Below, one piece after another: positions 1,601 through 37,900 of a DNA stretch of 64,000 nt. The stretch spans positions 165,664,001 to 165,728,000 of the forward strand of contig OZ360227.1 in the NCBI GenBank assembly GCA_977017645.1, given 5' to 3'. The stretch comes from Torpedo marmorata (lineage: Eukaryota). The notes beneath the pieces are model-generated. The model saw only the letters and a list, made by a program, of their open reading frames with translations, did no database searches and was not told the origin of the DNA. The position numbers and the translations under genes are program-made. The first letter of the stretch is position 1; each line of letters begins with the position of its first letter.

Positions 1601-1912
1601 GTCACTCTGCAACTCATAGGCTTTCTTAGCCTGGATCACGTCATTCTGGTCTGGGAGACAGGTCCATTCATGCAGATAATGTCTGTAGTCAATATCACTG
1701 ACCAGGGTCTGGCATTTCTTGGCCAACAGGATGTCCAGCATGTCGACCGGCATGTTGAACTTGGTCTTGGTTTTCTCAAAGTCTTTCTTATACTCCCTGT
1801 CACTCTGAATCTTGGCCACGTGCATGGACCAGACCATTTTGGGATCATCTTGCAGGCTGCGGCATCCAACATGGTGGCCAAGCTGCTTGCGGTAGCCTTC
1901 TTTGTATTTGTA
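1601..1912 (-). CDS. NEB: NEB exon A1 (312 nt)
   Basis: [34 protein letters not shown]...AYELQSD; AG at 1914-1913, GTGAG donor at 1600. Confidence 0.95.
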
Positions 1913-4900
1913 CTAATTGTGAGGAAGAAAGAATTCAGTTGAAACTTCAACAGTGATTTAGTATCTGGCATATCGCATTATCAAGATGTGCTTTAGTTGG
2001 TGAACAGCTCTTACCATGCTCGCAATGTCTCTGGACGCTTTTGCTGCCTTGATTGGAATGGCATCAACACGCATGTCGTAACCTTTAAGCTTGGATTTTT
2101 CCCATGCTTCTTGGTACAATTTCTGAAAGGACAGACACACAGGACTTGTTAGACTTTGCTTCTGATCAATGGTGAACCCAAGTTCCAATGTTTGCAGTCG
2201 CATGGGCAATTACCTGGCTGATGTTGGCAGAATTACTCTTAGCCAGAAGAATTTCAGGTGTGTCTGGCATAACATGAATCTTGGTTTTATCAACATCCCA
2301 AGCTTCTGTGTATAAGTGCTGTGCAAAAGAAACATGGCAGAAAATTATACTTTTGATGTCATAGTAATAAACACTTTAGGATTTAGTCATCGAGATCTAG
2401 TACTGCATTGTTTTTTGTTTTGTTTTTTTTAATTTTATTTTGGATTTTTTTTTTAAGAATAATTACACGGAGTAAGAGTTTTAACTTGAATCTAGAACTT
2501 GGTTAAGATGACTTATTTGTTTTTTTTTTATATATACATGTATAAATACCAGATAATTTTTCAAATGTTTTTCTTAATTTTTTATTCTGTATACATGTTT
2601 ATTTGTTGAAACTCAAAAAATATTTTAAAAAGAAAAGAAAATTTTACTTTTGATGTCATAGTAGTAAACACTTTAGAATTTAGTCATCGAGATCTGCAGC
2701 TGAGCAAGCTAGTCCCATTTGCCTGCATTCAGCCCATATCCCTCCAAACCTTTCCTATTCATGTACATATCTGTCTAAATCCCTTTTAAATGTTTAATTT
2801 GTCCCCACTTCCACTGGCAGCTCATTCCATATACCCACCATTCTCTGTGTGAAGAAGATCTTTATTAAATCTATCCCCTCTCACCTTATAGTTCCAAAAA
2901 CAAATTTCTACAATACCTTAAATAAAAAATTCCACTCTAATCTAGTTTTCCCTACCCTGGGAAAAGGGCTTTGACTATTTACATTATCTATGTCCCTCAT
3001 GATTTTATAAACCTCCAGAAGGTCCCCCTCACCCTCCTACGCTCTAGAGAGAAAATCGCCAGATTCTACAGATATTTGATGAGTAGTTTTAGGATGAAAT
3101 ATTTATTGATTGTCAGACAAGAAAATAATATATCAATTACTTTAATGATTATTGTGAAAAAATAAATTTTAATTTTTGTCATTCATTTTTACTTACTTTA
3201 TTAAGATTCAGGGCATTGTTTTTGGCTAAAACCAAGTCAAGCGAATCAAGAATACTTGTAAACTTAAATTTATCTGGGTGCTGGCGATAATTCTTTTCAC
3301 TCAGGATCTCCCCAGCTCTTTTCGCGTTCACAACATCCAGTGACTCATGAGGACTCCATCCGATTCCACGAAGCCATTCCAAGTCTGACTTGTACACCAG
3401 CTGTGGGTCCAAAGCATTGTTTCAGTCAGGAAGAAATATAATTGGGTAGTGGAAGGACTACTAGACGCAAATAAAAGTGGTGAAATTCAAACTGCATATA
3501 TTCAAAGTTAAACTTCAACTGTGATTGTAGTAGGTGCCAATCTTGTAACAATCAGTCATTTTGGTTTCTGACTGTACGCGTCAAAGATTTGATCAAACGG
3601 AATATTACGTACTATATTAATGCATCATTTACAATGTGAAGATTTCTCTCGCATTAAGATAACAGCATTCAAAAGTCTGGTTCAATTCTGTTCATTCAAA
3701 TCTTTGACAAATGTAGGTCTCTAAGCAACAGGTTTATACAGCAGCTGCAATTTTCTGGATGGATTCTAACTTTCATCAGTCTTTACTCTGCACATACGAT
3801 TGAGCAAAACTTAAGAGTAGAACGGTTAGTGCAACGCTATTACAGCGCCAGCAATCTGGGTACGAATCCAGCGCTGTATGTTCTCCCCGTGACCTGCCTG
3901 AGTTTTCCGGGTGGTCTGGTTTCCTCCCACCCTCCAAAACGTATGGGGTTGGTAGGTGTAATTGGGCTGCACAAGTTTCATGGGCCAGAAAGGCCTGCTA
4001 TTGTGTGGTATTGTTAAAATTTAAAAAAATCTTTTTGCTTCTTCTGCAGCAGACCCTTGGGATCAAGAATAACGTGTTTCCTCTCAGTTTTTGTGGCAAC
4101 TGCAGACTCTTCCACAAATGGGGTAGGAGGTGGATGATGGGATGAGTGGGTAGGTAGTTTGGGAAATGGTGCACTTATTACTCCCCATACACAACCTGAT
4201 GCTTACCCTCAAGGTTCTCAGTATCACCCCAAATGCTCCATCTCCATTTTGAGTGGTCGCAAGCAGGAGGTTCCCAGAATACGTGGGTATGTTGCATTTT
4301 CACAAGGAAACCAAGCTCATTTTAGTTCTCAAATCATAAGTAGTGTCCTTGTTAATTTATTATGACATGACAAGAATTACTATGAAAAAATGATCAATTT
4401 GGTTATCATAAGTAGCATATTTTCCTGGATGAATTTCTCAGTGTCTAGTCTAATTTGTTTCACTATGCGGCAACAAAATGAGAACAAAGACAAATAATAG
4501 TGAAGCACGATAGTCTGCAGATGCTGGGATTGTCGTCAAAACACAGAAATGATGGAGGAACTCAACTGGTCTCACAACGTCCATAGGAGGTAAAGATATA
4601 TTACTGACGTTTCGGGCCTGAGCCCTTCCTCAAGGAATTGGCTTAACGATAGATACATAGATGGAAGAAATGCAGTGCTTGGTCATAAAGATACAACATT
4701 CAGTATACATTGATTTAAGTGGAGTAAGGGCTCAGGCCCGAAACGTCGGCAATATATCTTTACCTCCCATGGACGCTGCGAGACCGGCTGAGTTCCTCCA
4801 GCATTTCTGTGTTTTGAAAGACAATTAATAAATCATGCATCCTCACACGCTGCTAAACAGCCTATGCAGTTAAATTGTAGCTTGACATTTTAAACCCCAA

Positions 4901-7900
4901 AGCATTCTCATGAACTTTAACTATTTTATTATTGCCAGATACATACAAAAGCCATAAAAAAAGCTATTGGAAATAAAACTCACTCACATGAGATTAAACC
5001 CAATCTTAGTTATTTGCAAGTACAAGGCTGTAATTTCTAAGAGGAGGTGTTACATTATTTAGAATAAATAATAAACACTCAAGGTAAAAGAAGCAGACAG
5101 ATGAATATTTAAAGTATCCATTCACCAATGTTAGACATCTGAGAATCATAATAAAGATAGAAAAAGCAATCAAATGGTGTTTAAAATAACAGGTTGTTCC
5201 ATATAAATAGCTCTGGGAGGACTGATGAATTACAAGTCCAGCAATGTCAGAGGTCAGATGTTAACAGGTAGTCCTTTTGCCAAAGAATAGCTTTCTACTG
5301 AACCTGATGGCAGCTGGTCCACTGACTAGCAATTCAATGACTGCCTTTGACTGAGGGCTGGAACCATTTGAAGGCAGTAATTGAATAATCCAGAATCAGA
5401 GTGATCTCCACCACCAAACTGAGAATTTTGTGCAAAACTGACAGCTGAGAATCAAGTATGACCAGAAAATGAATTAAATTGCTTTACCAACAAGCACATT
5501 TTCTTTTGAATAATGAAGGAAGAAATTTCCTTCTACTTGATGCGAGATCATACTCGAAGAGATAATTAAGGAGTAATTGTTTTCCCCAAACAAAAAACAA
5601 GTTGCAATCCTCTTTTAATTTTTATATATGGTGGAAGATATCAGAAGTACAATACAGATCTAAATGAATTCACACATGAATATTAATGCAACAGCTATCT
5701 GGCATCATTTACCGGTAATTAATCTGTGAATTCATCACTAGTGAAAATACAATGGCAATCTGCACAAATTAATTTCTCAAATTTTCTGACAAATTTCTTT
5801 AAAATTCTGAAAGGAATTTAAGGAAGTACTCACATCACTCTGCAATTCATAGGCCTTCTTTGCCTGGATCACATCATTCTGGTCTGGGAGACAGGTCCAC
5901 TGGTGCAGGTATCGCCTGTAGTCAATGTCACTGACCAGGATCTGGCATTTCTTGGCCAACAGGATGTCCAGCATGTCGACCGGCATGTTGAACTTGGTCT
6001 TGGTTTTCTCAAAGTCTTTCTTATACTCCCTATCACTCTGAATCTTGGCCACGTGCATGGACCAGACCATTTTGGGATCATCTTGCAGGCTGCGGCATCC
6101 AACGTGGTGGCCAAGCTGCTTGCGGTAGGCCGTTTTGTACTTGTACTACAGTAGAGATCAAGCAAAGTATCTTGGTTTCAAGCAGTACATTCAACTCAAG
6201 GTAACTGCTCATTAAAAATGCCAAGATGGAATTTTTGGATCGATTGAATCTTCCGGTACTACCTCAGGATGAACGTGCAAGCTTGGAAAAACCTATTTCT
6301 AAATAGGATATAGCTCTCGCTATTTCCTCACTACAGTCTGGTAAATCTCCAGGGCCAGACGGATTTCCTGTGTAATTTTATAAATCTTTCTCCAAACAGC
6401 TTGTACCTCATCTGAGTGTGGTATTGGATAACTCAATTAATGAGCGTAAGCTTCCCGCATCTTTTAATGAGGCCAGTATTTCCTTAATTCTTAAAAAGGG
6501 TAAAGAATCGACTGAATTCACATCTTATAGACCCATTTCTTTACTTAATGTGGATATGAAGATTTTGTCTAAAGTATTAGCACATAGATTAGAAAATATT
6601 TTACCTTTAATTATCAATTCAGATCAGTCTGGATTTATTAAAAATCGTTTTTCATATTATAACATTAATAGATTGTTGAATATTTTATATTTACCTTCTA
6701 CTCCGGTGACGGAATGTGTCCTTTCACTAGATGCTGAAAAAGTATTTGATCGGGTGGAGTGGGAATATTTATTTGCTATTTTAGATAAATTTAATTTTGG
6801 TTCTGATTTTATTAAATGGATTAAGTTACTATATTCTTATTCTATGGCCTCAGTTCAATCTAATTTACAACAATCAGATATGTTTCGGCTTAATAGAGGA
6901 ACCCGACAAGGGTTAAGTCCTTTGCTTTTTGATATAGTATTAGAACCTTTAGCTGTTGTTCTTCGACATTGTAGAGAATTTAATGGTATAACTAGAAACG
7001 GAATTGAACACAAAGTATCTCTCTATGCGGACGATTTATTATTATTTATTTCAAACCCTGAAGTTTCTATACCAAATATATTAACCCTATTTACTCAATT
7101 TAGTCAATTTTCAGGGTATAAATTAAACCTACAAAAGAGTGAGCTATTGCCCTTAAAAGGACCTTTTATTGGTTATTCTAATTTTCCGTTTAAAATAGTG
7201 AACAATCAATTCTAATACTTAGGAATTACAATTACAAAAAACCATAAAAATTGACTGAAAGAAAATTTTTGGGTATTAGTTAATAAGGTTAAATTACAAT
7301 TAGTGGGTTGGTCAACCTTATCAATTACAATGATGGGCTGTATTAGTTCGATTAAAATGAATATTTTGCTTACATTTTTATATCTTTTCCAATCTTTATC
7401 AATTTTTATTCCTAAAACCTTTTTTATTTCATTGGATTCTATTCTTTTTTCATATATATGGCAGGGAAAACATCCACGTATAAATAAATCCCATCTTCAA
7501 AAAATTAAAAGGAATGGAGGATTATCACTTCCAGATTTTAGATTTTATTATTGGGCGATTAATATTCGTAATTTGCTTTTGTTATTGCATTTTGATAAGT
7601 TACAGAATCGCCCATCCTGGGTGGAAATGGAATTGAAGTTTTCAAAAAAAAACATCTATGTTAGCAATTTTAGGATCCTTTTTACCATTTTCATTTGTTA
7701 AAATAACTCATAATCCTGTATTAAGATATAGGTTGAGAATATGGGCACAGTTTAGAAATTTTTTTGGATTTAATAGCTTTTCTCTGGCTAGTCCTATTAT
7801 AGATAATCACCTTTTCTAGCCGTCTGTGATGGATGTAGGATTTAGGGAATGGTATAGATTGGGAATTCATAGTTTTAATGATCTTTTTATTCGAGATAGT

Positions 7901-10900
7901 TTTGCCACTTTCGAACAATTGGTCAATAAATTTAATCTTACTAACAGACATTTTTTTAGATACTTATAAATTAGACATTTTGTTCAGTCTAAGATTTCAG
8001 ATTTTCCTCGAATTTTAAGTTCTAATTTTCTCGATTTACTTTTTAATATACGGTTCTTTTTTCAACGTGGATTAACATCATGTATATATAATAATTTATT
8101 GGAAATCAGAGTAGCTTCTATGACGGGGATCAAGAATGAATGGGATCGAGATTTGAATGTTACATTTTCAGATCAAGATTGGTACAATGCTCTTGATCTA
8201 ATTAACGCCTCATCTTTTTGTGCTAGACGCTGTTTATTACAATTTAAAGTGGTACATAGAATTCATATGTCTTAACTTAAACTATCACGTTTTTACTCTG
8301 ACATAGATCCATTGTGTGAGAGATGTAAAATTTTTGAAGCTTCACTGATACATATGTTTTGGAAATGCCCCAATTTGGAGAGATTTTGAAAGGATATTTT
8401 TAAATCTTTATCATTGATTTTTAAGATTAATATTGAACCATGTCCTATAATTGCTCTGTTTGGTTTTTCACGTGAACTTAACATACCTTTGTCTGCATCA
8501 CAGGAAAAAGTTTTAGCTTTTTCCACGTTGATTGCCAGACGGGCAATTTTATTGAAATGGAAAGATGAGTTATCACCGACACATAGACAGTGGTTACTAG
8601 ATGTAATGTCCTTTCTGAGTTTGGAGAAAATTAGATATAATATTAAAGATAGAAAGTTTCAATTTTTAAAGATCTGGGGGCCATTCATTGAATAATATCA
8701 TGATTGGCAGAATTAACAAAACTGACTATCCCGGGGACTCTCTGTCCGATGCCTGGAGGTCGCTACAGGATCCATACCTTTTTTACAATATTAAGGTAAC
8801 CTTACTTAGAGGGAGGGGTTAGAATAGATTAGTTATTAGTGTTTATTTTTTTTGGTCTTTTTTTTTCTTTCTTTTTATTTTATTTTCAAGTGGGTTTTTT
8901 TTAAGATAATTATAAGGAACTAGAGTTTTAACCTATATTAAGAATTTAGTTACGACAATTTACGTAGTTTTTTTTATATACATGTATGAATACCAGCTGA
9001 TTTTTTGAATGTTTTTCTTAATCTTGTTACTCTGTATACATGTTTATTATTGAAACTCAATAAAAATATTTTAAAAAGAAAGAGAATGCCAAGATAAGGT
9101 ATTCACTGACACTAAATAAATAGGTCCACTTACATCACTGGCAATATCTCTGGAGGCTTTTGCGGCTTTAATTGTAATGGCATCAGGTGACAAGTGGTAG
9201 CCCTTTTTCTTTGACTCCTCCATTGCAAGTCTGTACAATTTCTATGTGGAAGAGAGAATGTTCTTAGTGATAGTTTCAAAATTAAATTGAAGTTTTTTTA
9301 TGTTCTTCAGCTAATTGTCATGTACAGTGTCTCAATATGTTGAGTAGTGGCTAAAGGTGGAGATTCAATTTCAGATTCTACGGAAGTCAAGTCAAGTTTA
9401 TTGTCATCTGATTGCACAAGTACAACCCGACAAAACAGCGTTCTCCGGTCCTCGGTGCAAAACATGCAGACACACAACCAGGCATAAACACATACAAACA
9501 ATACATACTCTATGTAGGACAAGTATTCATATATACAAATAAATATTGTTTCGTAAATATGATGGTTAGTGTGAGCAGTTCTTTTGGTCGTTCAGCATTC
9601 TCCCTGCCCGTGGGAAGAAGCTGTTCCTAACCTGGTAGTGCTGGCTCTGATACTCCTGTATCTCTTTCCCAATGGGAGTATCTGAAAGATGCTGTGTGCG
9701 GGGTGGAAGGGGTCCTCAATAATTTTGCACGCCCTCTTCAGGCAACGATCCCGGTAGATCACGTCAATGGGTTGGGGGGGGGGGAGGGAGACTCCAGTGA
9801 TCCTCTGCCATTCTTATGGTCCTGTGCATTGATCTCTGATCCATTTCTCTGCAGCAACCGTACCACACTGTGATGCAGCCGGCCAGAACGCTCTCGATAG
9901 AGCTCCTGTAGAAGGTTAACATAATGGTGACCGGTAGCCTTGCCCACTTCAGTCTTCTCAGGAAGTGCAGTCGCTGCTGTGACTTCCTGACAAGTGAGGA
10001 GGTGTAGTGTGCCCATGATAGGTCACCAGTTAAGTGAACTCCGAGGAACTTGGTGCTCTCCACTACAGAGTTATTGATGTGTCGTGGAGGGTGGCCATTC
10101 CTGGTCCTCCTGAAGCCATGATCATCTCCTTCGTCTTTTCCATGTTGAGACTCAGGTTGTTACTCTCGCACCATATCACGAAATTTTCCACCTCTTCACT
10201 ATAGTGTGACATCATTGTTTCTGATGGGACCTACTACTGTTGTGTCATCTGCAAACTTGATGACAATGTTGGAGCTGGATCTGGCGATGCAGTCGTGGGT
10301 CAGTAGCATAAACAGGAGCGGGCTGAGCACACAGCCCTGAGGTACGCAAGTGCTCAGTGTGACGGTGCTCGACGTTCTGGTTGGCTTTGGTGCCAGCTGC
10401 ACAAGTGCTTCATCCAGACTGATCCTGGACTAGGCAACTAAATTCCCAGCTATTGCAGTGGGATGTGAACTCTGGATCATTCACCTTGCTATCTGAACTA
10501 CTAATCCAGTAATTCATGACTCGATTATGGTACCCTCTAATCTGCCCTAAATGTAAAGTAACACTGAGAGTCAATTTCATTTACTATGGCTTCACATACT
10601 TACGTCACTGCACGCAATCTGGTTCTGTTTTGCCAATATTATCTCTGGTGTATCTGGCTTCAGATGAATTTTGGTTTTGTCTGCTTCCCAAGCTTCAATG
10701 TATGCCCGCTAAAAAATAATCACATGGATTAGCATTTTGTTGGGGAATATTGAAAACATAATTGCCCATTAATTAAATGAAGAGTCCAACCTTATTCATT
10801 ATGTGTGCATTATTCTTTGCCAGAGCCAAATCCATGGAGTCATTCAGGCTTGTGAATTTGAACATCGATGGGTGCTGCCGGTAATTTTTCTCACTCAGGA

Positions 10901-13900
10901 TCTCACCGGCATTTTTGACTTTGGCCACATCTAGCGATTCATGTGGAGACCATCCAATACCCTTTAGCCACTGAAGGTCCATTTTGTATTGATTCTAGAA
11001 CAAATGAAAAACATCTCTGCAAATTACTCTATTTATACCACTGAAGTTTGTTCTAGCTGAGAATAAGGCAAGGTCTGATTTGCACAAGTTCTGGAAGACA
11101 GTTAAAAAAAAATCCTTGTTTAAGCTTCATGTTAATCAGTGATTCAGCCAATTCAATAAAAATAACATCCATGAACAGTGTTAGAATCTAGATCAACCTT
11201 CATGTGGATGTTATTTTGTTGAAATCAACTGAGATAATCAGACTGCTGGAAATACTGAAGACATGAGGAAGCATCAGGATTAAACAGTGGAGTTATCATT
11301 TCACGTCAATGATCTGACATCAGAACCTACATTGACTTCTCTTTCCATGGATGCTGTCTTACAAATTAAGTATTTCCAGTATTTTATGCCTGTAATTTTG
11401 AGAAATCCATTATCAACATTGTCAATTTAAGTACAGGTCACTATACAAGAAAATAATGTAAACCTGGTTGTTATAATAAAAGACTTACATTTGTATTATA
11501 TTTAATTTAATTTAAAATGTGGACATACAGACATACAGCAGGGTAACAGGCCCTTCCGTCCCATGAGCCCATGCCGCCCAATTACCCCAACTAACCAACG
11601 ACTCCGGTACGTTTTGAAGGGTGGGAGAAATCCACGCAGATATGGGGAGAATGTACAAATTCCTAACAGACAGCGCCAGATTCGAACCCGGGTCGCTGCC
11701 ACTGTAATAGTGTTGTGCTAACCTTTACGCTAACCATGCCGCCCTCTACGCTAACCATGCCGCCCCTATGCTAACTATGCCACCCTATCTGATCACATTG
11801 AAATGTAATATACTGTTTTTAGCAAGTGTGGCAACAGATTTTAGACAGTAACTGTTTATGATTACGACAGCTGAGGAAGTAGAATTGGGAATGCCACATC
11901 TACTGTTCTTTGATCGTTATCATGGCTTTGTTCCAAAAACAAGCTTTGCCCCAGTTGAATTCCTTGTCAAAAAGGAGGCACTCCCAGTTTATTATTGGAC
12001 CCGGCCAATTATCGATCAAGAACCCATCATAACCCTCTATTTTTCTTGTATCCACGTGCCTGTCTAAGAGTCTTTTAAATGTCCCTATTGTATCAGTCTC
12101 CACCACCACCCTTGGCAATGCATTCCATGCACCCACCACTCTGTGTAAAAAATCTTAACACTGACGTCTCCCTTAAACCTTTCTCCCCTCACCTTAAACA
12201 GGTGTCCTCTGGTATTTGCTACTGTCACCTCAGGAAAAAGATGTTGGCTGTCCACCGTATCTATGCCTCTCATAATCTTGACCTCTATTAAGTCACCTTT
12301 CATCCTTCTTCGCTCCAAAGAAAAAAGCCCTAGCTCTGTTAACCTTGCCACATAAGACACATTCTCCAATCCAGGCAACATCCTGGTAAATCTCCTCTGC
12401 ACACTCTCCAAAGCTTCCACATCCTTCCTGTAATGAGGTGACCAGAACTGAACACAATATTCCAAGTGTGGTCTAACCAGAGTTTTATAGAGCTGCAACA
12501 TTACTTTACAGCTCTTGAACGTAATCCCATGACTAATGAAGGCTAACATACTTTAAGGCTTAAGCCTTCTTAACTACCCTATCAATCTGCTCAGCAACCT
12601 TGTGAGATCAATGGATTTGGACCTCAAGTTCCCTCTGTTTTTCCACACTGTTAAGAATCCATGTACACCACCTTCAAGTTCGACAATGCAAAATGCTTGA
12701 CTTTGAATCTGCCACGAGATCATGAGAAACTTGGACCATTTCTTAAGTCACCTCTCAGCAATGACAAATACCATCAACACCATCACTGGTGTGCCAGCAT
12801 TGCTTTCAGTCAGTTGATGAAAAGGATATTTAAATATCAGGAGCTCAAATCTGGGACAAAAAGCCCATGACTCACTCTGGAATATACAGGTCAACTGAAC
12901 CAAACATAGGTTCTTTCATTGTAAAGACCTGTCCAGGTTTAAATTTTTATTTTTTTTAAATTTTTTTATACAGCATGGTAACAGGCCATTTCGGCCCACG
13001 AGTCCGTGCCGCCCAATTTACACCCCATTAACCTACACCCCCGGTTAGTTTTGAACGGTGGGAGGAAACCGGAGCCCCCAGAGAAAACCCACGCAGACAC
13101 GGGGAGAACGTACAAACTCCTTACAGACAACTTCCTTATCATTGCAAAGGAGTTTTTATATTTTCAGGTTGCAATCCAAACAACCTGCATGTTTCATCAC
13201 TACAATTTCTACATTAGATTATTCTGGCCTGGCAGATGTATCTATTGTTACAAGTAGTTCCAGTCATCCATGTCACTGACTGAAGATAGACAATTCTTGG
13301 CTTATGAAAATGTAACTTTGTTCAAATTTCACACCTCCAGCTTTGCTACAAAGACTATTTGAGCTTTTGTAGATAATTGACTACGAAAATGTTTTTCACG
13401 CATTTTCCGATTAAATTTTTAAAAATAGTTATCAACATTCTAAGAATGTTAAGAAGATACTCACATCACTCTGCAAATCATAGGCCTTCTTTGCCTGAAT
13501 CACATCATTCTGGTCTGGGAGACAGGTCCACTGGTGCAGGTGATGCCTGTAGTCAATGTCACTGACCAGGGTCTGGCATTTCTTGGCCAACAGGATGTCC
13601 AGCATGTCGACCGGCATGTTGAACTTGGTCTTGGTTTTCTCAAAGTCCTTCTTGTACTCCCTGTCACTCTGAATCTTGGCCACGTGCATGGACCAGACCA
13701 TTTTGGGATCATCCTGAATGCTGCGGCATCCAACATGGTGGCCAAGCTGCTTGCGGTAGGCTGTTTTGTACTTGTACTGTTAAAGTTAAAATTATCAGTT
13801 TGCGTGTTTTAAATTAATACATCAGAAATGATGGGAAAATGTCCAAAAATTGATATAAATTTATATAAAATAATGTTTAAAACAAAATATAAATTGCTTA

Positions 13901-25900: not shown

Positions 25901-28900
25901 GCCTCCACATTGATGCAATCGCAAAGAAGGCTCGCCAGCGGCTATACTTTGTGAGGTGTCTGAGGAGATTCGGTATGTCACCAAAGACTCTTGTAAACTT
26001 CTGCAGGTGTACTGTGGAGAGCATTCTGGCTGGTCGCATCACTGCCTGGTATGGAGGCGCCAACTCTCAGGACAAGAATAAACTCCAGAGGGTTGTTAAC
26101 TGGCCTGTGACATCACAGGCACCAGACTTCACTCCATCGAGGACATCTACATGAGGTGGTGTCTTAAAAAAGCAGCCTCTATCCTCAAAGACCCCCACCA
26201 CCTAGGCCATGCCCTCTTCACTCTGCTACCATCGGGAAAAAGGTACAGGAGCCTAAAGACGAACACTCAACGGCACAAGGACAGCTTCTTCCCTGCTGCC
26301 ATCAGATTCCTGAATTATCAATGAACCAAAGATACTGACTTACTTTTCGTGCACTATTATTTATATATATTTTATAGTAATGTCGTAAGATGGTAATAAT
26401 ATGAATGTTTGCACTATGATGATGCTGCAAAACACCAAATTTCATGACAATAAATTCTGATTCTGATGTTAATCTTCACCTTTTGTAATAATTTGATCAT
26501 TTTTTGTTCCTGTATTTTAATAATTTATGATATATGGATATCTAAAAACACATTTCTTTTCAATAGCACTCAGGCTCTTTCTCTTATGACTTTATTTCTG
26601 GATGCAAAGTGAACGATCACTGCTATATGTGGATTGCGGAGGATCACGTGACCTCCCTGTCTGGAACTTAGGTGGAAGTCGCATCACCTGCCAATCAAGT
26701 TTGGACTCCGGCCATCCATTAGTGCACACCTTACCATTGGCTTATTGAAATGATGCAGTGTCATCATTGTCCAGACGCCCAGCTCAGACCAACATAAACT
26801 ATAACACATGCAACAGATCTCGCTCTTTGCTCTTGGTCCTGACTACGAACGCTGCTCTACGCCAGGTCGCTATTGTGGACATTGCTGGAGGAGTCGTTGT
26901 TAAGGTGTGCACTACTTAGAGCGGACTGTAGTATTTTTTGGCAGTAAGCATTGAGCCCCCCCACCCCGTTGGTACAGGGAATCGGGAGTGTGCGTTTAAG
27001 TCCCTGTCTTGTTAGTGTGTATTAGTAACGGAATATTACTTAACACTGATCCGCACCGAGGTACAAGTATTGGGAGTGTCTGCTGAAGTCCCTGTCTGTG
27101 AAGTGTGTACACGTGTGGGAGTGTGCGGTAGGGTAAGCAGCCACTGGTATCGAGGACCCTTGCGCCCGATGTGCCTGCTTACACCGTTATAGTTTTTGTC
27201 TCGTACCCCGTAGAAGATAGGCGGCCACTGGTATTGGAGTCCAACCTGGATCCGATGTGAATGCCTGTATAGCTATTAAGTAGTGAGAGTGATTAAGTAT
27301 TGCTTGACGTCTTCCCCTGTTTGATTCCCGTGTGTACAATAAAGTTACCTCTGATTGTGACACTTGTGTCCAGACTCATCTCTCTGTGAACCCACTGAAT
27401 CTGATACTATTCCCAACACAACAATCAAACACATCTTACAATTGGATGCTGTTAACTGCAATTATGTCCATCACCATCCTCATTCTTATGTTATCCCCTT
27501 CTCCTGTCTGGCTCATCTGTAAACCTGGGTATACAGCTCTTTATGAAGCTTTTATTAAATAATAATCTGGAAGTTATTTTGCAAATTAGCAAACTATTAA
27601 ATTTAATTTCAACATTTGCTCTGATTGAATTTAGATTACTAATCCAGTGAGATATCATATCCATTTAAATCAATATTTGGTAACCAACCTGAGCTCCTTC
27701 AGTTCCCCTCCCTTGCTCTCATAATTATCAAATGTCTCTTCAAAATGGCTTCCCATACTTACGTCACTGCACGCAATCTGATTCTGTTTTGCCAATATGA
27801 TGTCTGGCGTATCAGGCATGATGTGAATTTTGGTCTTGTCTGCTTCCCAAGCTTCAACATATGCACGCTGAAAAATATGTACAAGCAAGTTAGTATTCCA
27901 ATGGACCAGAACAAATTTACTGACAAAAATCTATATCTTTCAAACACCAAACAGAATATAATGATTCAACCTTATTCATTCTGTGGAAAAAAAAAATCAG
28001 ATTAAAATAGACTTGCCTTATTCATTGTAAGTGCATTATTCTTTGCCAGGGTCAGATCCATGGAGTCGGACAAGCTGGTGAACTTGAACATCGATGGGTG
28101 CTGACGGTAATTGTTCTCACTCAGAATCTCTCCAGCTTTTTTAACTTTGGCCACATCTAGCGATTCATGTGGAGACCATCCAATACCCTTTAGCCACTGA
28201 AGGTCCATTTTGTATTGATTCTAGAAGCAATGAAAAAAATCTTTGCAAATTACTCTATTTAAACCACCGAAGTTCATTCTAGCTGAGAATAAGCAAAATG
28301 ATTGAGATTTGAATGAAGGACAGAAAGTACGTTATTTTACGGCAGACCTTTTCTCAACAATTATTTATGCTTCCTTGCAATTGTGGACAGTGCCTCCTGC
28401 TTGAGGGGATTACCAGTTTCTAATCCATCAATTTGCTATTATCTTGTAGTGTCCTACCATTATAAATGGGGAGGACGCAAAGGAAGAATGTTTTATTAAA
28501 TGGATAAAATGGGGCGGCACAGTTAGCGTAGCGGTTACCGCAATGCTGTTACAGCGCCAGCGACCCGGGTTCGAATCCGGCGCTGTCTGTAAGGAGTTTG
28601 TACATTCTCTCCGGGTGCTCCAGTTTCCTCCAACCCTTCAAGAAACGTACGGGGGTTGTAGGTTAATTGGGTATAATTGGGGAGTACAGGCTTGTGGGCC
28701 GGAAGGGCCTGTTACTGTGCTGTATGTCTAAAAAAAAGAGATACGTCCTTGTCCAATGAATTCTATGGTAAAATCTAGCTCTTGCAACAGAGCACATCAG
28801 AGGAAAGATGTAAACATATGCATGAATAGCAGCAAGTAAACAGGTAAAGTAGTATCAAGTCAAAAGTATATTTTAAGCAGTGGTTCCATTGTATAAGCAT

Positions 28901-31900
28901 GGATCCCACAACCTCACTACTTTAGTGCTCCAAAGCAAATTGATTGGGCCAGAAGACCCAGACATGTAGTGACTGGAGCAAAGCTTTGTGAGCTTGCTCA
29001 GCTGTCAAAAGTGTAAAGCACTCCGCATGTTTCTGAATGTCCACGCAAAACTATTAAAACTTGACGAATATTCTTTTTAAATTTTTTTTATGTTACTGAA
29101 AAACAGAGAAACACTTCAATTAATTTGAAACAAGGCATAATTACCACTCTCACTCACAAACCTCACTCTCGATTCAAATAATGAATTCTTTGAATTTGAT
29201 CTTATTGAATTATTGTCGCAAGTACTGAGCTACAGTGAAAAGCTTTATTTAATATCCAGGCAAGTCAACCCATACTTAAGTGCAGAAGGTAGTAAAATAA
29301 TAAAACAAAAGTGCATGGTGCCGTGTTGCAGCAAATCAATGAGTGTAAGGTATAGTGTGACAAGGTATAATAAAATGTACAGTTGAAACTCTGCAATTAC
29401 ATCATCTTTTACCAATGAGAGATCCATTTAAAAGTCTGATAGCAGCAGAAATGAAACTATCCTTGTGTCTGGTGGTTCGTGTTTTCAAATTCAAGGTAAA
29501 TGTCACATATACCAAGATGCAGTGCTCAAGAGAAAGGAGAAGAAGGGAGTCTGTGGTGTGATGGGTCTTTTATTATGTTGGCAGCTTTCCCAAGACAGTA
29601 GGAGCTACAGAAGGAGTCGATGGAAGGGAGTTTAGTTTATGTGATGGCCGGAGCTGCATTCAGAACTCTCTGCAGCTTATTGCTGTCTTGGGTAGAGCAG
29701 TTTCCGTACCAGCTGTTATTCAAGATTCAAGAATCCTTTATTGTCATGTAATAGTGCAGAAAATGTAACATTACACGAAATTTCTTTCTGCCTGTGGTAT
29801 GGAGACAAAGAGTTACCATTAGTATTGCCCGGTGCCTCTTACTGTCAGAGAGAGAGAGTAAGAAAAGAGAGACCCTTCAGGGTCATTGAGTGTCCGTGGA
29901 TTCACCTCCAGCACTCCTGCAGCCTCTGCAACCACAAAGACTCCTGTTCGATCCATTGGTATCCCAAGCTTCAGTTCCAATGCTGCGACACGATCAAAAA
30001 GATTGCAGTGCCCGAGACCCTTCAGGAGTCCTTCCTGCCCTCAGCACCCTCACGAATCCCGGTTCTGTGAATGCCTCAACTGCAAGTCGCTGATCGCCTG
30101 CAGCCTGTGGATCCTTCAGTCGCTGAGCCCCTCTGCCATGATCACCATCCTGTCGGGTCATCTCCTCTGCTTCTCCTTCTCAATGGGGAGTTTTCTCCCA
30201 GTTACTGGTGCCCTACGCTGGTCCGCTGCTTCCCCAGAGACTGCAGGCCCTTGTGGTCGCTGCTGAGCATAGGCATTGCCATCTTGAGCACAGACCCCGA
30301 GGTTGCAGGTTCTTAATTAAAAACACTGTTGCCTACTTTAACAGGCTTTTTAAGGCCTGAACAGAGCTGCCATTATTAGGATTGGGCAGTTAGACCCTGC
30401 GGAGCAGTGCTGCCTCTCCACTCCCCGCTCTCCTGGGTCCACACCAGCGACAGCGCCACCGTTGCAGCTGCTCCAGCAGCGTCACCATTTTTAAAAATCC
30501 ATTGTTATACAACCAGTCTGGATATTTTCTGTGGTACATTTGTAAAAACTGGTAAGAGATCTTGGGGACATGTCAAAATAAATGGGGAACTGCCACATTT
30601 TCATGCATCATTGGAGCATAAAAGGACAACTGAAAAATTGTCCGCAGAAACCAGCCAGCAACTATGAAATCTCTGTGCACGTGAAACAGTCCTGAACTTC
30701 CTGATGCTGATTGCAGGCACTTTGGGACAGAAATCCCAGCATCTCAACTGTTGGCCTCTCCCAGCAAGTTCTATACCGATCCATCTACAACCTGAGCATT
30801 GCCTACATGTTGGAGTCAGCAGATTGTTCCTTGAGATTTTAAAATAGTGGCGTAGAAGAAATTGAATTGAAGTTATTTTTATTAATTTTCCATTTTAAAC
30901 CAAAGAAATACTTCAAAGCTCATTTTCAAATAAACTAAGTAAGGTTAGGGCTCAAATTTCAATAGAGATTTATGTAAAGAGATTAAGGCATATTAATGAT
31001 AAAAGTATCATAAGATACCTTAACCTGTTACATCAGTATGGTATCTCAATGCAAATGCAGGAAAAATAGTCACATTGGACTTGAAATACTCACATCGCTC
31101 TGCAGGTCATAGGCCTTCTTAGCATGAATCACATCATTCTGGTCTGGGAGACAGGTCCACTGGTGCAGGTGATGCCTGTAGTCAATGTCACTGACCAGGG
31201 TCTGGCATTTCTTGGCCAACAGGATGTCCAGCATGTCGACCGGCATGTTGAACTTGGTCTTGGTTTTCTCAAAGTCCTTCTTGTACTCCCTGTTGCTCTG
31301 CATCTTAGCTACGTGCATGGACCAGACCATTTTGGGATCATCCTGAATGCTGCGGCATCCAACGTGGTGGCCAAGCTGCTTGCGGTAGGCTGTTTTATAC
31401 TTGTACTACAGTATATAAAGATATCATGTTATTTGTAAATCTGAACATCTTAAAGATTAAAATAGGCAATAATTGCTTTATACATACATCACTCGCAATG
31501 TCCCTGGAAGCTTTTGCAGCCTTGATGGAAATTGCATCATTTCTCAGATCATATCCTTCCTTCTTTAATCCTTCATAACCCTTTCTGTATAATTTCTATG
31601 AAACAAATGGACAAACATTTTCAAAAAATATAATTCTAACTGCTTAGCAATTCCCAACGCAAACTTTTGGACCAATCAATGATATCATTCAATTGGAATT
31701 ATTTGCAAAATGCTGCACAGAAGATGCTGGGATTTATTCTGTAGCCATGTTAATTATGGACATTGCCCTTAAAAAACTTTGGACAAGTCTTTGATCACTT
31801 ATGCTAATATTTCCTTCTCCAAATTTGTATTCCTATATGCACTGTGCTTCAGATTGAAACATTTCTTGCTATCATCTGCTGACAATTTGTGAATTTGAAC

Positions 31901-34900
31901 AAAAAAATTTAATAATGTCAAAAAGTGGAGCTCAATCTATTTCCATGAATTGTCTGAAGATTTTCATTCTCCACAGTTGAAGACACATTCTTCTCTTTGG
32001 AAATAATTTATATTTAATTCACATTTGCTTTGATAATTTTGAAAGTAATAATAAATGATTGAAAATTGACCATATAGGTTACTTTCTAGTCATTCAAGGC
32101 ATGGATATCTCTCCCCCAGCCCAACAACCACTGAAACACTCCCACCCTTTATAGATCTCTCAGTCCCTTCATCCTACCTTTAGTGCCTGCACCTTCAATT
32201 GTCTTGGGTACATCACTGGCACACTCTCCCTAAATTTTTCTACCTTAAATCTCTTTTGTTAAACCGTGCATCTGTTTAGACACCTTTGCCAAAACTCACT
32301 TCTCAGTGCCAAAGTTTTGTCCGATTGCATACCCATGAAGCATCTTGGGACTATTTTATAATGTTAAATGTATAAAGGAGAATCACATCCATACATCAGC
32401 AGAACAGCTTAATAGACCACGACTGGGAAAAATAATTTACTGAAAGAATTTGTGCAGCAGAGAATTTAGTTAATGTTCCCCCCAAACCTAAGCAGAACAC
32501 AAATTTGGCTCTGAATGGGCACTTACCTCACTAATGTTTATTGCATTTGCTTTGGCCAGTTGTATTTCAGGAGAGTCAGGCATGATATGAATCTTTGTCT
32601 TGTCCTTCTCCCAGGCTTCTGTGTAAAGCCTCTGATATAAATTAAAAAAAGGAAATGAATGGATCAAAGTTTTGCTAACCATACATTAGGGATGGCCAGA
32701 AATGCCAGCCTGTTGAAGGGCCCAGGCCCAAAATGTTGTCACATTTTAAATCCTATGGATGCTGCTTGACCTGTTGAGTTTCTCCAGCCCATTTTTGAAT
32801 TGCATTCAACTCCAGCACCTTTAGACTTTCTTATTTAAATGATAGCCTACGACATTCTGTGAGTACATAAAACCTATACTGAACAGTTCCACCTCTCTGC
32901 AAGTGGTTTAACTGTAATGTTTCAAGACACAGCAATAACTTGTGTATTTTTTGATTGTATTTGAAAAATGAATAGTTTAAAGAAGAATTACATACAAGAG
33001 GAATACAAAAGCTGAGCAGCTGGTCCTACCGACTAACCCAATATCAACCTATGATTTCAAATATTATTGTGAATTCAGGAATAAGTTGCCTGGAATTTCT
33101 TTGGTAGTGAATTTACGGTAGTTGTCAAATATTACTTCTTCATTTAGTCCACTGCTATGCTGACATGTGTATTGCAAAAAAGAAAATTACTAAATTCAAT
33201 ATCCACACTCAATATGGCAGTTATACTACAGTAATATAAAGGTAAGTTACACTTCCAATAAAATACATCCATGCCATTCATGATGTCAAGTATATGTGAA
33301 GGTTCTCTTCACCTTAACTATGCCTTCACCTCCTGAAACCTACATGAGGGTTTAGCCTCAACCGCATTTTTATGGAGCTATTATAGATGCCAACTCTACT
33401 TCCAATTAGGAAGGTTAGAATCAGACCATAGTTTCCTCGAGGTTTGGTCAACTTTCAGAGCCTTTTATGGCCCAAGCAAAACACCTCATTATCCTTCAAA
33501 GATAAGCAAAAAAATACAGGCTGTTTTTAAAATGGCACCAAAGCTCCCTTTAATAACTGCTGATTAGCCATTTAGTGTCAGGACAAATTACATTTTACAA
33601 AATTGAAACCTTGCCTGTTGCAGGATCTGCTCTAAGATAACTATAGCTAAAGAGATAGTGTCTCCACTAAAAAAAGAACTTTTGATATTCCTATCAACAA
33701 GTAGCACTGGTGAACATTGATCTGGAGAGGGAACTGGGAATGCAGTGCTTGAATTGTAGCAACATCGCATGAAAGTACAGCAAATAGGTTACTATTTGCT
33801 TTGATGAAAGATATTGCTAACATAATTATTTTCACCCTAATGCCTGCTGTTTCTGAAACAGTGTCAGTTACACAAGGGAGCACACCAATGCTATTTAAGA
33901 ACTGGTGGAAAGGAATTTCATAAACTTAGAACTTCTTAAAACAGCACAAGGCAAATTAATAATGCAATTTTCACAATTGAAACATGATACAGTTGGATTT
34001 CTAAGATGGAATCCCAGGATAAGTCTGAAATAAGAACTTCATCCAGATTTGTTAATCATTACAATTCTTTACCCAGAATACTGGTTTGAGAATATTAGTA
34101 AGGCTGGGCTCGTTTTCCCTGGCATGACGGAGGCTGAGGGGTAATGTGATAGATTAATATAATATCGTATGAGATATAGATCGTCAGAATCTTTTTTCCC
34201 CCATAGTAGGAATATCAAAAACAAAAAGTCTACGATAAGGCAAAGGAGTTTTAAAGGGGATCTGAAGGAAGTGCTTTTTTTTTCCATGCAGAGTGATTGA
34301 TATCTGGAGCATATTGCCAGAGGAGGTGGTAGAATTGATACAACCACTTTGTTGAAGAGGCATTTAGACAGACACCTGAAAGGCAAGGCAGAGAAGATAC
34401 AGACATCATACAGGCAAAGCAGTCAGCATGAATGCAGTGGGCTGAGGAGCCCTTATCTGTGCTGTATGACCCTATGGCGCCCGTTAAGGTCAATTACTGG
34501 TAATGTTGAAGGCAAAGATAAATAAATTGGTTTCTGAGACAATTGCGGTATGGACAGCAAATTAGATGAGATGGACGATCAGTTAAAATCTGAGTGAATG
34601 GCTCAAAGTGGTGCTGTGACCTGATGGGAGGATGAATTTACCAAGAGCAGTGAAGGTGGAGTCTCTGAATAAATTCAAGGGTGAGATTGACATGAACCAT
34701 GAGAGGTGTGACCTTGAGGCCGAACTGGATCAAGCATAATCTGATGGAATGGCAGATGAGCCGATTGGCTACTCCAGCTCTTGTTTCTTACACTTTTATG
34801 TACTCTTACTTATATTTTGTACGTTCTCGGTTATTTAGCACAAAATTCTGAGGAAAAAAAATCAGATTAAAATAGACTTGCCTTATTTATTGTAAGTGCA

Positions 34901-37900
34901 TTATTCTTTGCCAGGGTCAGATCCATGGAGTCAGACAAGCTGGTGAACTTAAACATTGATGGGTGCTGACGGTAGTTGCTCTCACTTAAGATCTCACCAG
35001 CTTTTTTGACCTTGACCACATCGAGTGATTCGAGAGGAGACCATCCAATACCCTTTAGCCACTGAAGGTCTGCTTTGTACACAATCTGGAAGGCAATGAA
35101 AAATCATTTCACAACTGTGCAAAAGGACAGAGCTCTTAGATTTTCATCTTTGTCCAATTCTTCTGGAATAGGTGCCGACTAAAAATGACAGAACGCCCTT
35201 CCACCACTATTCGGGGAGTATAACTGAACCCCTCCACCCGATGTTGGTTCCACTGAGACATGACATGCTTCCTGCTGTGTGAGTGATGTGTGATTATAGG
35301 AGGCACTTGAACTAAGTCTGGCCTTCATTGAGTTTTCTGCTAACTGCTTTGGGTAAATACTGGACCCACCAGCAAAAGCAGAAGTAAAGGCCTTTGGCAG
35401 CCAAGATCAAGGAGACATTTAGGGTGTGCTGCTGTGCACAGGAGAAAACTCAAATATCATTTTTCTTGGGCAGAGTTCATGGCTGGACAGTGCATTCTTG
35501 TCCTCTGAAGATTAATCAATGTCAGAAAGTTATCAAATTCAAATATTATATCCAGAGGTTTTAAGAAGTTTGAAGGTTTATGGGGCAGGATTGTCTTTAA
35601 TCATGGAAATCCAGAATATGGGTCAAACCTATAATATTCCTCGAAAAATCTGTTGAGGTTGACTGAATTGAAAAGTTCAAAACAGGAATTGATGTTTTTG
35701 TTGTTTACAAGTCTGTTGATGTTAGTGGAACTAAAATATGTTGATGTTGTTAAAATATAGTTCAGCTTTGATCTAATTGTATGGCAAAGCAGTGAAACAG
35801 GGCTAAATGGTGTCCTCCTGTTCAGAATGTTCCTAACTCTAAGACAAGCTATCGAAACAAAATGGGGAATCCATCCTTTTTAAAGTTTTGAAAGCTTGCT
35901 AGATCAAAATCATGGAACTTGGCTTCAAAATGCATTGTGGCAAGCACCATTCTGTTTTTATTCCTCTGCTTGTGGCATTATGTAATGGCTTTATTGTTCA
36001 AGTGTATGATATCGTTGATATTATACTCACGTCACTCTGCAAATCATAGGCTTTTTGTGCATGTTTCACATCATTCTGGTCTGGGAGACATGTCCACTGG
36101 TGCAGGTGTCGCCTGTAGTCAATGTCACTAACCAGGGTCTGGCATTTCTTGGCCAACAAGATAGCCAGCATATCAACTGGCATGTTGAATTTGGTCTTGG
36201 TTTTCTCAAAGTTCTTCTTGTACTCCCTGTCACTCTGCATCTTGGCCAAGTGCATGGACCAGACCAGCTTAGGATCATCTTGAATGTTGCGGAAACCTAC
36301 ATAATTGCCGAGCTGCTTGCGGTAACCTGTTTTGTACTTATACTGCAAAAGAGAATATAAAGCAGGAATGTAATGTTGCGGCTTTAGTCAGACCACACTT
36401 GGAGTATTGTGGGCAGTTTTGGGCTCTTTACTGAGGAACAATGTGTTGGCATTGGAGAGGATCAAGAGGAGGGTCACTGGAATGATCCCCAGAATGAAAA
36501 AGTTATCATACGAGGAGTATTTGATGGCTCTGGAACTGTACTCACTGGACTCGCCTTTCGAATACTGAAAGGATTGGATAGAGTGGATGTGGAGAGGTTG
36601 TTTCCTGTGCTGGGGGAACCTGGGACCAGAGGGCACAGCCTCAGAATGCAAAAACGTCCCTTTGGAACAGAAGTGAGGAGGTGTTTGTTTACCCAGAGGG
36701 TGGTGAACCTGTGGAATTCATTGCTGCAGGTGGCTGTGGAGGCCAAGTCATTGGGTATATTAAAAACAGGTGGATAAGTTCTTGATTAGGAAGGGAATCA
36801 AGGATTACGGGAAGAAGGCAGGAGAATGGAGTTGAAAGGATAGTAAATCAGCCATGAAATGCCGGGACAAACTCGATGGGCCGAATTACACTCCTATGTC
36901 CAATGGTCTTATGTTCTAAAATTGTTCCAACCCCTCAGTGGTATTTCCCAAGGTACAATAAATGTCCAATTTCGGTCTTGATTACAGTTATGTTTCTCTT
37001 AAATAGGCACAGATGACATATATAAGTTAATTAGGGAAAATTTAACTTGTGGTCACTATGAAAGAGCCAATATATCAGAATGCTTTGAAGGGAAAGTGCT
37101 CATTGACCAAGATAATAAGTGGAGGGGAAAGGGTTGGGGAGGAAGGGAACAAAAGTGTGAACTCAAAGCCCAACCAAGAGAATATTTTTAAGGATGTTTT
37201 TGAAATTTGCTGCAGTAACATCAAAATGTAAAGATTTTGTAAAAGGACAGAATCTTAGTTGCTGAAAAAATGGAATTAAAGAGGGACACATTTAATTGGG
37301 ATTGATTCCACGTCAGCTGAGTGCCAGATGGATATTGTTGAAGAACACCAAGATTGAGAGGTTAACTGAATAAATTTGTTTCGGATAGAATTAAAGTACT
37401 GAGACTGATATTTGGAACTTGTAGTTCAAAAATTGTCATCACAAGGAATACATCTTGAGATAATACAAGAATATTGTACATAGTGGTAATTCATGAATAA
37501 CAGTGGTTTTGTTGTTATAAATTTTCTGGGCTTGTGTTAAGTGGCAGTCTTCAATAAGGTGAGAGGTGGGAGACGCAGAAGATAGCAACTTTGACCACAG
37601 AGCCAATGAAACAAAAAAAGACAAATTTCTTTAAGAAGCATAAATATAATTCTGCTCTCCTTTAATTTATACTTCCAATTGCTACCTGGGGATCATTGTT
37701 GGAAAGCTGGGAGGTGAAGGATATTTCATATCTCAAAGTTGCTGGGACTTGCAATTCAAATGCACTCGTTAAAAATATTGGACAAGGTGTCCTATTAAGT
37801 TAATAATAGTATGAATCAATCATAGAAGGGAAAGTCATTAAAAACTGTTGCCATACATCTGGTATCAATACTGAGATTCTTTATGTTTTTGTTTTTGTTT

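Follow-up and report, generated by a model that had tools for sequence, protein, structure and literature searches.

In the clustered protocadherin genes of fugu, parts of the variable exons are homogenised among tandem paralogues of the cluster, which are separate gene units. The homogenisation is lineage-specific, and the G+C content at third codon positions (GC3) is raised in the converted part, which is the published mark of repeated conversion (available part of PMC1852091). The mammalian pairs BMP8A/B, DDX19A/B and TUBG1/2 show mosaic concerted evolution in many lineages and over more than 100 million years, as indicated by likeness within species and a rise in GC; they are two whole genes each, with constant copy number and whole introns co-converted (available part of PMC2720389). 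In a published survey of intragenic repeats, the repeats were more alike within than between species, and the phenomenon was called rare and lineage-specific; nebulin is unmentioned there. A study of tandem duplication in nebulin described the same seven-module super-repeat and a high within-species similarity of the central super-repeats. It takes within-species identity as recent duplication, and the accessible part of its text has no mention of conversion, concerted, homogen or intron (PMC7754682). The human NEB triplicate is a block duplication including introns. We analysed a window of 64,000 nt from Torpedo marmorata (contig OZ360227.1), the minus strand of which carries 32 nebulin exons in eight super-repeats. 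Five of its eight A exons, A1-A5, combine near-identity at silent sites with high GC, and very probably this results from short, GC-biased, DNA-templated gene conversion between old copies.

As far as the available parts of these papers go, nebulin shares with the protocadherins the homogenisation of part of an exon among tandem paralogues, the lineage specificity and the raised GC3. It differs in that the partners, which lie 4-35 kb from one another, are internal exons of the constitutive type within a single mRNA, and in that each exon class has a different partner network. With the mammalian pairs it shares the mosaic pattern in many lineages and the two signs by which they were judged, but in nebulin at least five exons of one gene take part, only intron edges are shared, copy number is variable and the process is seemingly much older. 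Like the surveyed intragenic repeats, those of nebulin are more alike within species, but only part of the unit is affected, and this recurs across lineages. Unlike the NEB triplicate, the similarity is exon-class specific and the units are old. The mechanism is familiar from work on protocadherins and on mammalian gene pairs; the searched literature seems to contain no description of its long-running, exon-anchored form in nebulin. Our search found no report of gene conversion or concerted evolution in nebulin; it excluded subscription papers, bioRxiv supplements and Bjorklund et al. 2010, which is reportedly the main study of nebulin repeat evolution and may touch on the subject.

The nebulin stretch spans positions 1601-62272 of the window (minus strand, like all exons and exon flanks below) in the exon order B8-C8-D8-A8 to B1-C1-D1-A1. 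All 32 exons are open and in phase 0. The B exons are 204 or 207 nt long, C 105 nt, D 108 nt and A 312 nt, so that one unit fits the super-repeat of about 243 residues with its SDxxYK and WLKGIGW-type motifs. In a protein search, the best matches of the A3 peptide were named nebulin or nebulin-like, had up to 85% identity and carried Pfam PF00880. Introns were present in all 31 positions (82-6165 nt, several only 82-149 nt). The A exons, each open and bounded by AG and GT, lie at 1601-1912 (A1), 5834-6145 (A2), 13465-13776 (A3), 20415-20726 (A4), 31094-31405 (A5), 36031-36342 (A6), 49163-49474 (A7) and 55508-55819 (A8). A1-A5 are homogenised, A6 is partly homogenised and losing GC, and A7 and A8 served as divergent controls.

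The initial annotation, made from the letters of the window, had proposed patchwork homogenisation of A1-A6, with a core of 76 nt identical in A1-A5. We found exact copies of this core in A1 (1708-1783), A2 (5941-6016), A3 (13572-13647), A4 (20522-20597) and A5 (31201-31276). The counterpart in A6 (36138-36213) has 8 mismatches, and no further copy was present in the window within 25 mismatches. Over 312 nt, A1-A5 differ pairwise at 12-35 positions; A3 and A4, for which about 15 differences had been counted, differ at exactly 15. The description of A6 as partly homogenised and of A7 and A8 as divergent was also borne out: A6 differs from A1-A5 at 36-49 nt, and A7 and A8 at 116-127 nt from A1-A6 and at 96 nt from each other. 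Identical runs reach 169 nt between A3 and A5, 138 nt between A4 and A5 and 120 nt between A3 and A4. Among A1-A5, 42 of the 312 columns are variable, with 0-2 per 39-nt bin in mid-exon (nt 118-195) and 4-8 elsewhere. The longest stretch without a variable column coincides with the 76-nt core (exon nt 130-205). An invariant run of 25 codons was reached in 0.07% of 20,000 codon shuffles (p = 0.0007). Degenerate codons make up 23 of the 25 in the core, and a match of one pair at all 23 has a probability of about 1e-7 at the background synonymous identity rate of 0.50, which was taken from 857 B/C/D codons. The variants are shared in blocks between neighbours as had been claimed (SLQ in A1/A2 versus SIQ in A3-A5; IQSD in A1-A3 versus MQSN in A4/A5). 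Our own permutation tests for tracts gave p < 0.05, uncorrected, for 8 of 15 A-exon pairs, and 120 of 253 pairs of informative sites among A1-A6 were incompatible with a single tree.

The silent divergence (pS) was 0.14-0.37 in A1-A5 but 0.66-1.12, that is, saturated, when units 1, 3 and 5 were compared in their B, C and D exons. These include the unconverted controls B1 (3197-3400), C1 (2214-2318), D1 (2015-2122), B3 (18956-19159), C3 (14100-14204), D3 (13902-14009), C5 (32527-32631) and D5 (31488-31595); B6-D6, B7-D7 and B8-D8 are further unconverted controls. A single block duplication cannot produce both the saturated B/C/D exons and the near-identical A exons of the same units. Homogenisation also reaches B, C and D exons, with separate partners per class. 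B2 (10791-10994) has 91% identity to B4 (28017-28220; pS 0.30) and 82% to B5 (34882-35085), and B4 has 88% to B5 (pS 0.37). C2 (10604-10708) is 88% identical to C4 (27763-27867; pS 0.41), and D2 (9134-9241) 92% to D4 (21490-21597; pS 0.34). B5 is a mosaic, in which the first approximately 15 nt are its own and the remainder is near B4; it resembles B4, yet C5 and D5 are unlike C4 and D4. Thus, converted and unconverted exons stand side by side in the window. The likeness of units 2 and 4 in B, C and D (pS 0.30-0.41) would suit a recent block duplication with rapid decay of the introns afterwards, but each of the two units has its own counterpart in skate, whale shark and chimaera (available part of PMC7754682 Table S2), and the intron bodies do not align as they would after duplication of whole units. 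Together with the contrast in units 1, 3 and 5, this leaves a recent block duplication with a practically negligible probability. A duplication of two units (5-4 versus 3-2) was ruled out by the saturated pairs B5/B3, C5/C3 and D5/D3.

The base composition changed with the degree of homogenisation. GC at four-fold degenerate sites was 0.78 in A1-A5 (119/153), 0.58 in A6 and 0.37 in A7-A8, while it was 0.23-0.50 in the other exon groups; introns had a GC content of 0.39. The GC3 of A3 (76/104) exceeded that of 19 unconverted exons (460/976; p = 5e-7). Such a climb of GC with homogenisation would be the expected mark of GC-biased gene conversion. The four-fold GC of B2/B4/B5 was not raised (0.41 versus 0.44), which is consistent with rarer conversion events. 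Private changes from G/C to A/T outnumbered the reverse changes by 16:6 in A1-A5 and by 21:6 in A6. Here, A6 has drifted with a loss of GC, whereas its counterparts in skate, whale shark and chimaera appear homogenised.

The homogenisation had been described as restricted to exons, with flanks that mostly do not align and tracts that end near the exon edges. This is true for most of the sequence. The intron bodies could not be aligned, save for larger same-class matches away from the exon edges that look like dispersed repeats, and in an anchored flank score 218 of 224 same-class flank pairs stayed at or below the maximum of 768 cross-class controls, being unrelated up to the splice sites. The six pairs above this maximum all derive from homogenised exon pairs. 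The acceptor flanks of A3 (13777-13820) and A4 (20727-20767) are alike over 44 columns (86%), those of B2 (10995-11067) and B4 (28221-28293) over 73 nt (89%), and the donor flanks of B4 (27978-28016) and B5 (34845-34881), GC donor included, over 39 columns (92%). Three tracts spill 35-75 nt into the intron and others about 20-50 nt. We concluded that the sameness is exon-anchored and not strictly exon-restricted; nor is it limited to A, as the B, C and D pairs demonstrate.

The introns after B4 (28016) and B5 (34881) start with GC in place of GT. In the available part of PMC7754682 Table S2, whale shark super-repeat (SR) 8 has two extra residues (AR) at this junction. A GC donor may be present there too, with the annotation having read through it; in that case B5 supplied the sequence and B4 received it.

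A spliced RNA or complementary DNA (cDNA) template had been offered as a possibility for this pattern. Reverse-transcribed spliced mRNA as donor would account for exon-only homogenisation and for the 218 unrelated flank pairs, but divergent introns by themselves predict exon-centred tracts. The flanks of exactly those pairs that are converted were co-homogenised over up to 73 nt, and B4 and B5 share the GC donor while their neighbouring C and D exons are saturated. Since a spliced template contains no intron sequence and none of the 31 introns has been lost, a DNA donor is the simpler reading, and we regard a cDNA donor as highly improbable. An unspliced RNA might instead have served as template.

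The comparison with other chondrichthyans was made by eye on the protein rows of the available part of PMC7754682 Table S2; our protein searches covered proteins of up to 5000 residues, which included no shark or ray nebulin and, for the elephant shark, an entry with late repeats only. The window units match SR5-SR12 of thorny skate, SR5-SR14 of whale shark and SR5-SR13 of elephant shark. Type marks follow in the same order, e.g., a D exon ending in IASM and a C exon with ASQN/ANQN, and several window exons are closest to skate, which makes a ray the likely source. Since unit types and order are common to skate, whale shark and elephant shark, the copies are old. Chimaeras and elasmobranchs split roughly 400 million years ago. 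In all three species more A-type exons follow the matched units, and further homogenised A copies probably lie beyond the window start. Positional marks persist at the exon edges: residue 5 of A1, at its 5' edge, is the ortholog-specific E, as in the skate and whale-shark counterparts, and A6 has HAQK in common with skate.

Within these old units, the A variants are uniform in each chondrichthyan and peculiar to it, while B-D are position-specific. HHVGCRS, which is found in A1-A5, has no occurrence across Table S2. DQTDVIQ occurs 6 times, always in whale shark SR8-13, and PSKLKF 5 times, always in whale-shark B exons; B2/B4/B5 of the window have PSMFKF, which is absent from the table. Among the 13 of 14 places listed, TKYNIP falls in 8 repeats of elephant shark. 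YKKNFEK was less clean (skate 5, elephant shark 3, whale shark 1, frog 1). Zebrafish, perch and human each have their own uniform A cores, and human SR9-13 have one A core in common at the protein level.

We also assembled a set of 114 central units from 23 species, each with A and full B-D, from 27 proteins hand-picked among 120 plus the window; the coelacanth, elephant shark and lamprey entries contributed no units, and one coelacanth entry was excluded. Within-species identity was higher for A than for B-D in each of the 23 species. Of 110 informative units, in which B-D was nearer to another vertebrate group than to paralogues of its own species, 86 had an A part nearer to these paralogues. 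In trees of 63 units from 11 species, the species label changed 16 times for A and 32 times for B-D (minimum 10). The A rows of gar, sturgeon and turtle formed one branch each, and their B-D rows were scattered. The A peptides thus clustered by lineage much more than B-D did. Late bird A exons (KQKGHYIGC type; proteins P0121, P0125, P0136) are uniform among themselves and presumably form a separate homogenisation network, and early teleost A exons (GHHVGFRS type) likewise.

Purifying selection on the protein, together with codon or splicing constraints, might keep the A exons alike without any exchange. The A peptides are conserved, and the core peptide is identical in skate and whale shark (available part of Table S2). 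However, all 10 other lineages compared depart from it at 5-9 of 25 residues, and between lineages it is no better kept than the rest of A (0.29 versus 0.28), which argues against selection for a fixed sequence. In addition, lineage-private replacements are common to paralogues, the GC-rich codons are missing from A7, A8 and further exons of this mRNA, and intron flanks are shared too. Selection without exchange is, therefore, very unlikely. We rejected the 76-nt core as a universal hotspot or special element: within-species peptide divergence in 21 species was 0.134 in the core and 0.123 outside. The core is likely the footprint of the latest sweep and no functional element.

An assembly or polishing artefact, in which reads of paralogous exons were merged, would be suggested by the scaffold gap in the window (133 N near 408-540). 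However, the copies differ at 12-35 sites, lie in unique introns and are identical pairwise over 169 nt at most. A collapse would not give a graded GC bias and shared flanks decayed to 86-92%, and A exceeds B-D in the within-species identity of proteins from all 23 species. We consider such an artefact extremely improbable. The gap lies inside a purine-rich low-complexity tract just downstream of A1.

The number of super-repeats is not constant: 22-24 were reported for three chondrichthyans and 21-31 for vertebrates (available part of PMC7754682). Cycles of unequal crossover inside A exons would leave conversion-like tracts and might do most of the homogenising. We searched proteins of 51 species for duplication runs with adjacent B-D parts at least 93% identical and found 12 recent tandem runs. 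The internal A was chimeric in the direction predicted for a junction inside A in 4 of them and in the opposite direction in none; it was all of the first type in 4, all of the last in 2 and mixed in 2. The chimeric runs of eagle and zebra finch are clear, that of one hake-type fish depends on a single site, and that of rifleman on a model whose end is garbled. By eye, two of three duplications in whale shark looked similar (available part of Table S2). On the other hand, chondrichthyans have kept the order of the units, and adjacent units are saturated in B/C/D. The partners B2/B4, C2/C4 and D2/D4 are non-adjacent with an unlike unit in between, and the short tracts in the intron flanks suit non-crossover events. 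Crossover contributes but leaves the exon-class pattern unexplained, and it is unlikely to be the main homogenising process.

Since the A exon makes up only a few percent of the unit DNA in this window, the chimeric A exons in some of these duplications hint that A exons are crossover sites for length change. On this basis we tentatively suggest, although we rather doubt it, that the A exon is a self-renewing recombination pad, near-identical since early jawed vertebrates, at which unequal crossovers change the number of super-repeats. If this were true, A exons would be the route by which the length of nebulin, and of the thin filament, evolves; the idea offers a testable route for the change in super-repeat number. 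Mis-assembly would leave the same chimeric mark, and the breakpoints of large human deletions are reported mostly at long interspersed nuclear elements (LINE) as well as Alu elements (available part of PMC12402328); both weigh against such a pad. In whale shark, adjacent super-repeats are identical in protein in SR9/10 and in SR15/16 (available part of PMC7754682 Table S2). Judged from the protein, these may be very recent duplications or assembly duplicates, which would bear on published super-repeat counts.

The old orthologous order, the saturated B/C/D exons, the lineage clustering of the A peptides and the GC gradient led us to agree with the initial annotation in favoring gene conversion over recent block duplication, and repeated intragenic conversion appears to act across jawed vertebrates. 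Several observations weigh against this conclusion. Incompatible sites among A1-A6 were not significantly clustered along the exon (p = 0.18 in an adjacency test similar to the pairwise homoplasy index). The window A rows were adjacent in the tree but lacked support as a clade (2 label changes, with one branch in 28% of bootstraps). The B-D tree with its 32 changes is a quick-method tree, and 24 of the 110 informative units ran contrary to the lineage pattern, mostly from mole among the rows listed. The identical core peptide in skate and whale shark (available part of Table S2) means that protein-level selection is not separated from conversion within elasmobranchs. The evidence across species is at the protein level, the varying number of super-repeats indicates that unequal crossover also acts, and the role of exon length for A is one that we infer.

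Closely homologous stretches of about 100-200 nt are required for ectopic conversion. We propose that protein selection would keep paralogous exons alike while introns decay, so that non-allelic strand invasion from a paralogous copy 4-35 kb distant would succeed best in the longest exon, A (312 nt). A break would be repaired off this copy without crossover, and the tracts would be centred in the exon and fade at its edges, sometimes spilling 20-75 nt into the intron. Mismatch repair would favor G/C. Conversion would reset similarity and in this way sustain more conversion, in a loop that is likely older than the chimaera-shark split. The shorter exons (B 204 nt, C/D 105-108 nt) would exchange only between the closest partners. 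A copy that drifts too far would drop out, as A7 and A8 may have done long ago and A6 apparently does now; A6 is likely a copy leaving the conversion network in this lineage.

Of the 243 residues in each central unit, 104 (about 43%) follow the species and not the repeat. Repeat orthology should, therefore, rest on B-C-D, and within-species similarity of super-repeats, until now read as a record of recent duplication, needs rereading. For ectopic conversion, the locus amounts to a natural experiment within one gene: its targets measure 312, 204 and 105-108 nt, its GC bias is graded, and it has copies in, leaving and outside the network. If the process were active in people, paralogous NEB exons outside the triplicate could swap variants and confuse short-read calling.

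The introns of the window contain further repeats. In the A7-B6 intron, a 32-nt unit is repeated in tandem about four times at 46849-46976, with 94% similarity between the units. Copies of one putative short interspersed-type repeat are present in different introns (1356-1567, 3805-3882, 23951-24214, 28514-28750 and 60768-61029). The longer fragments at 44343-45173 and 50590-51475, also in different introns, are related to each other and putatively retroelement-like in appearance.

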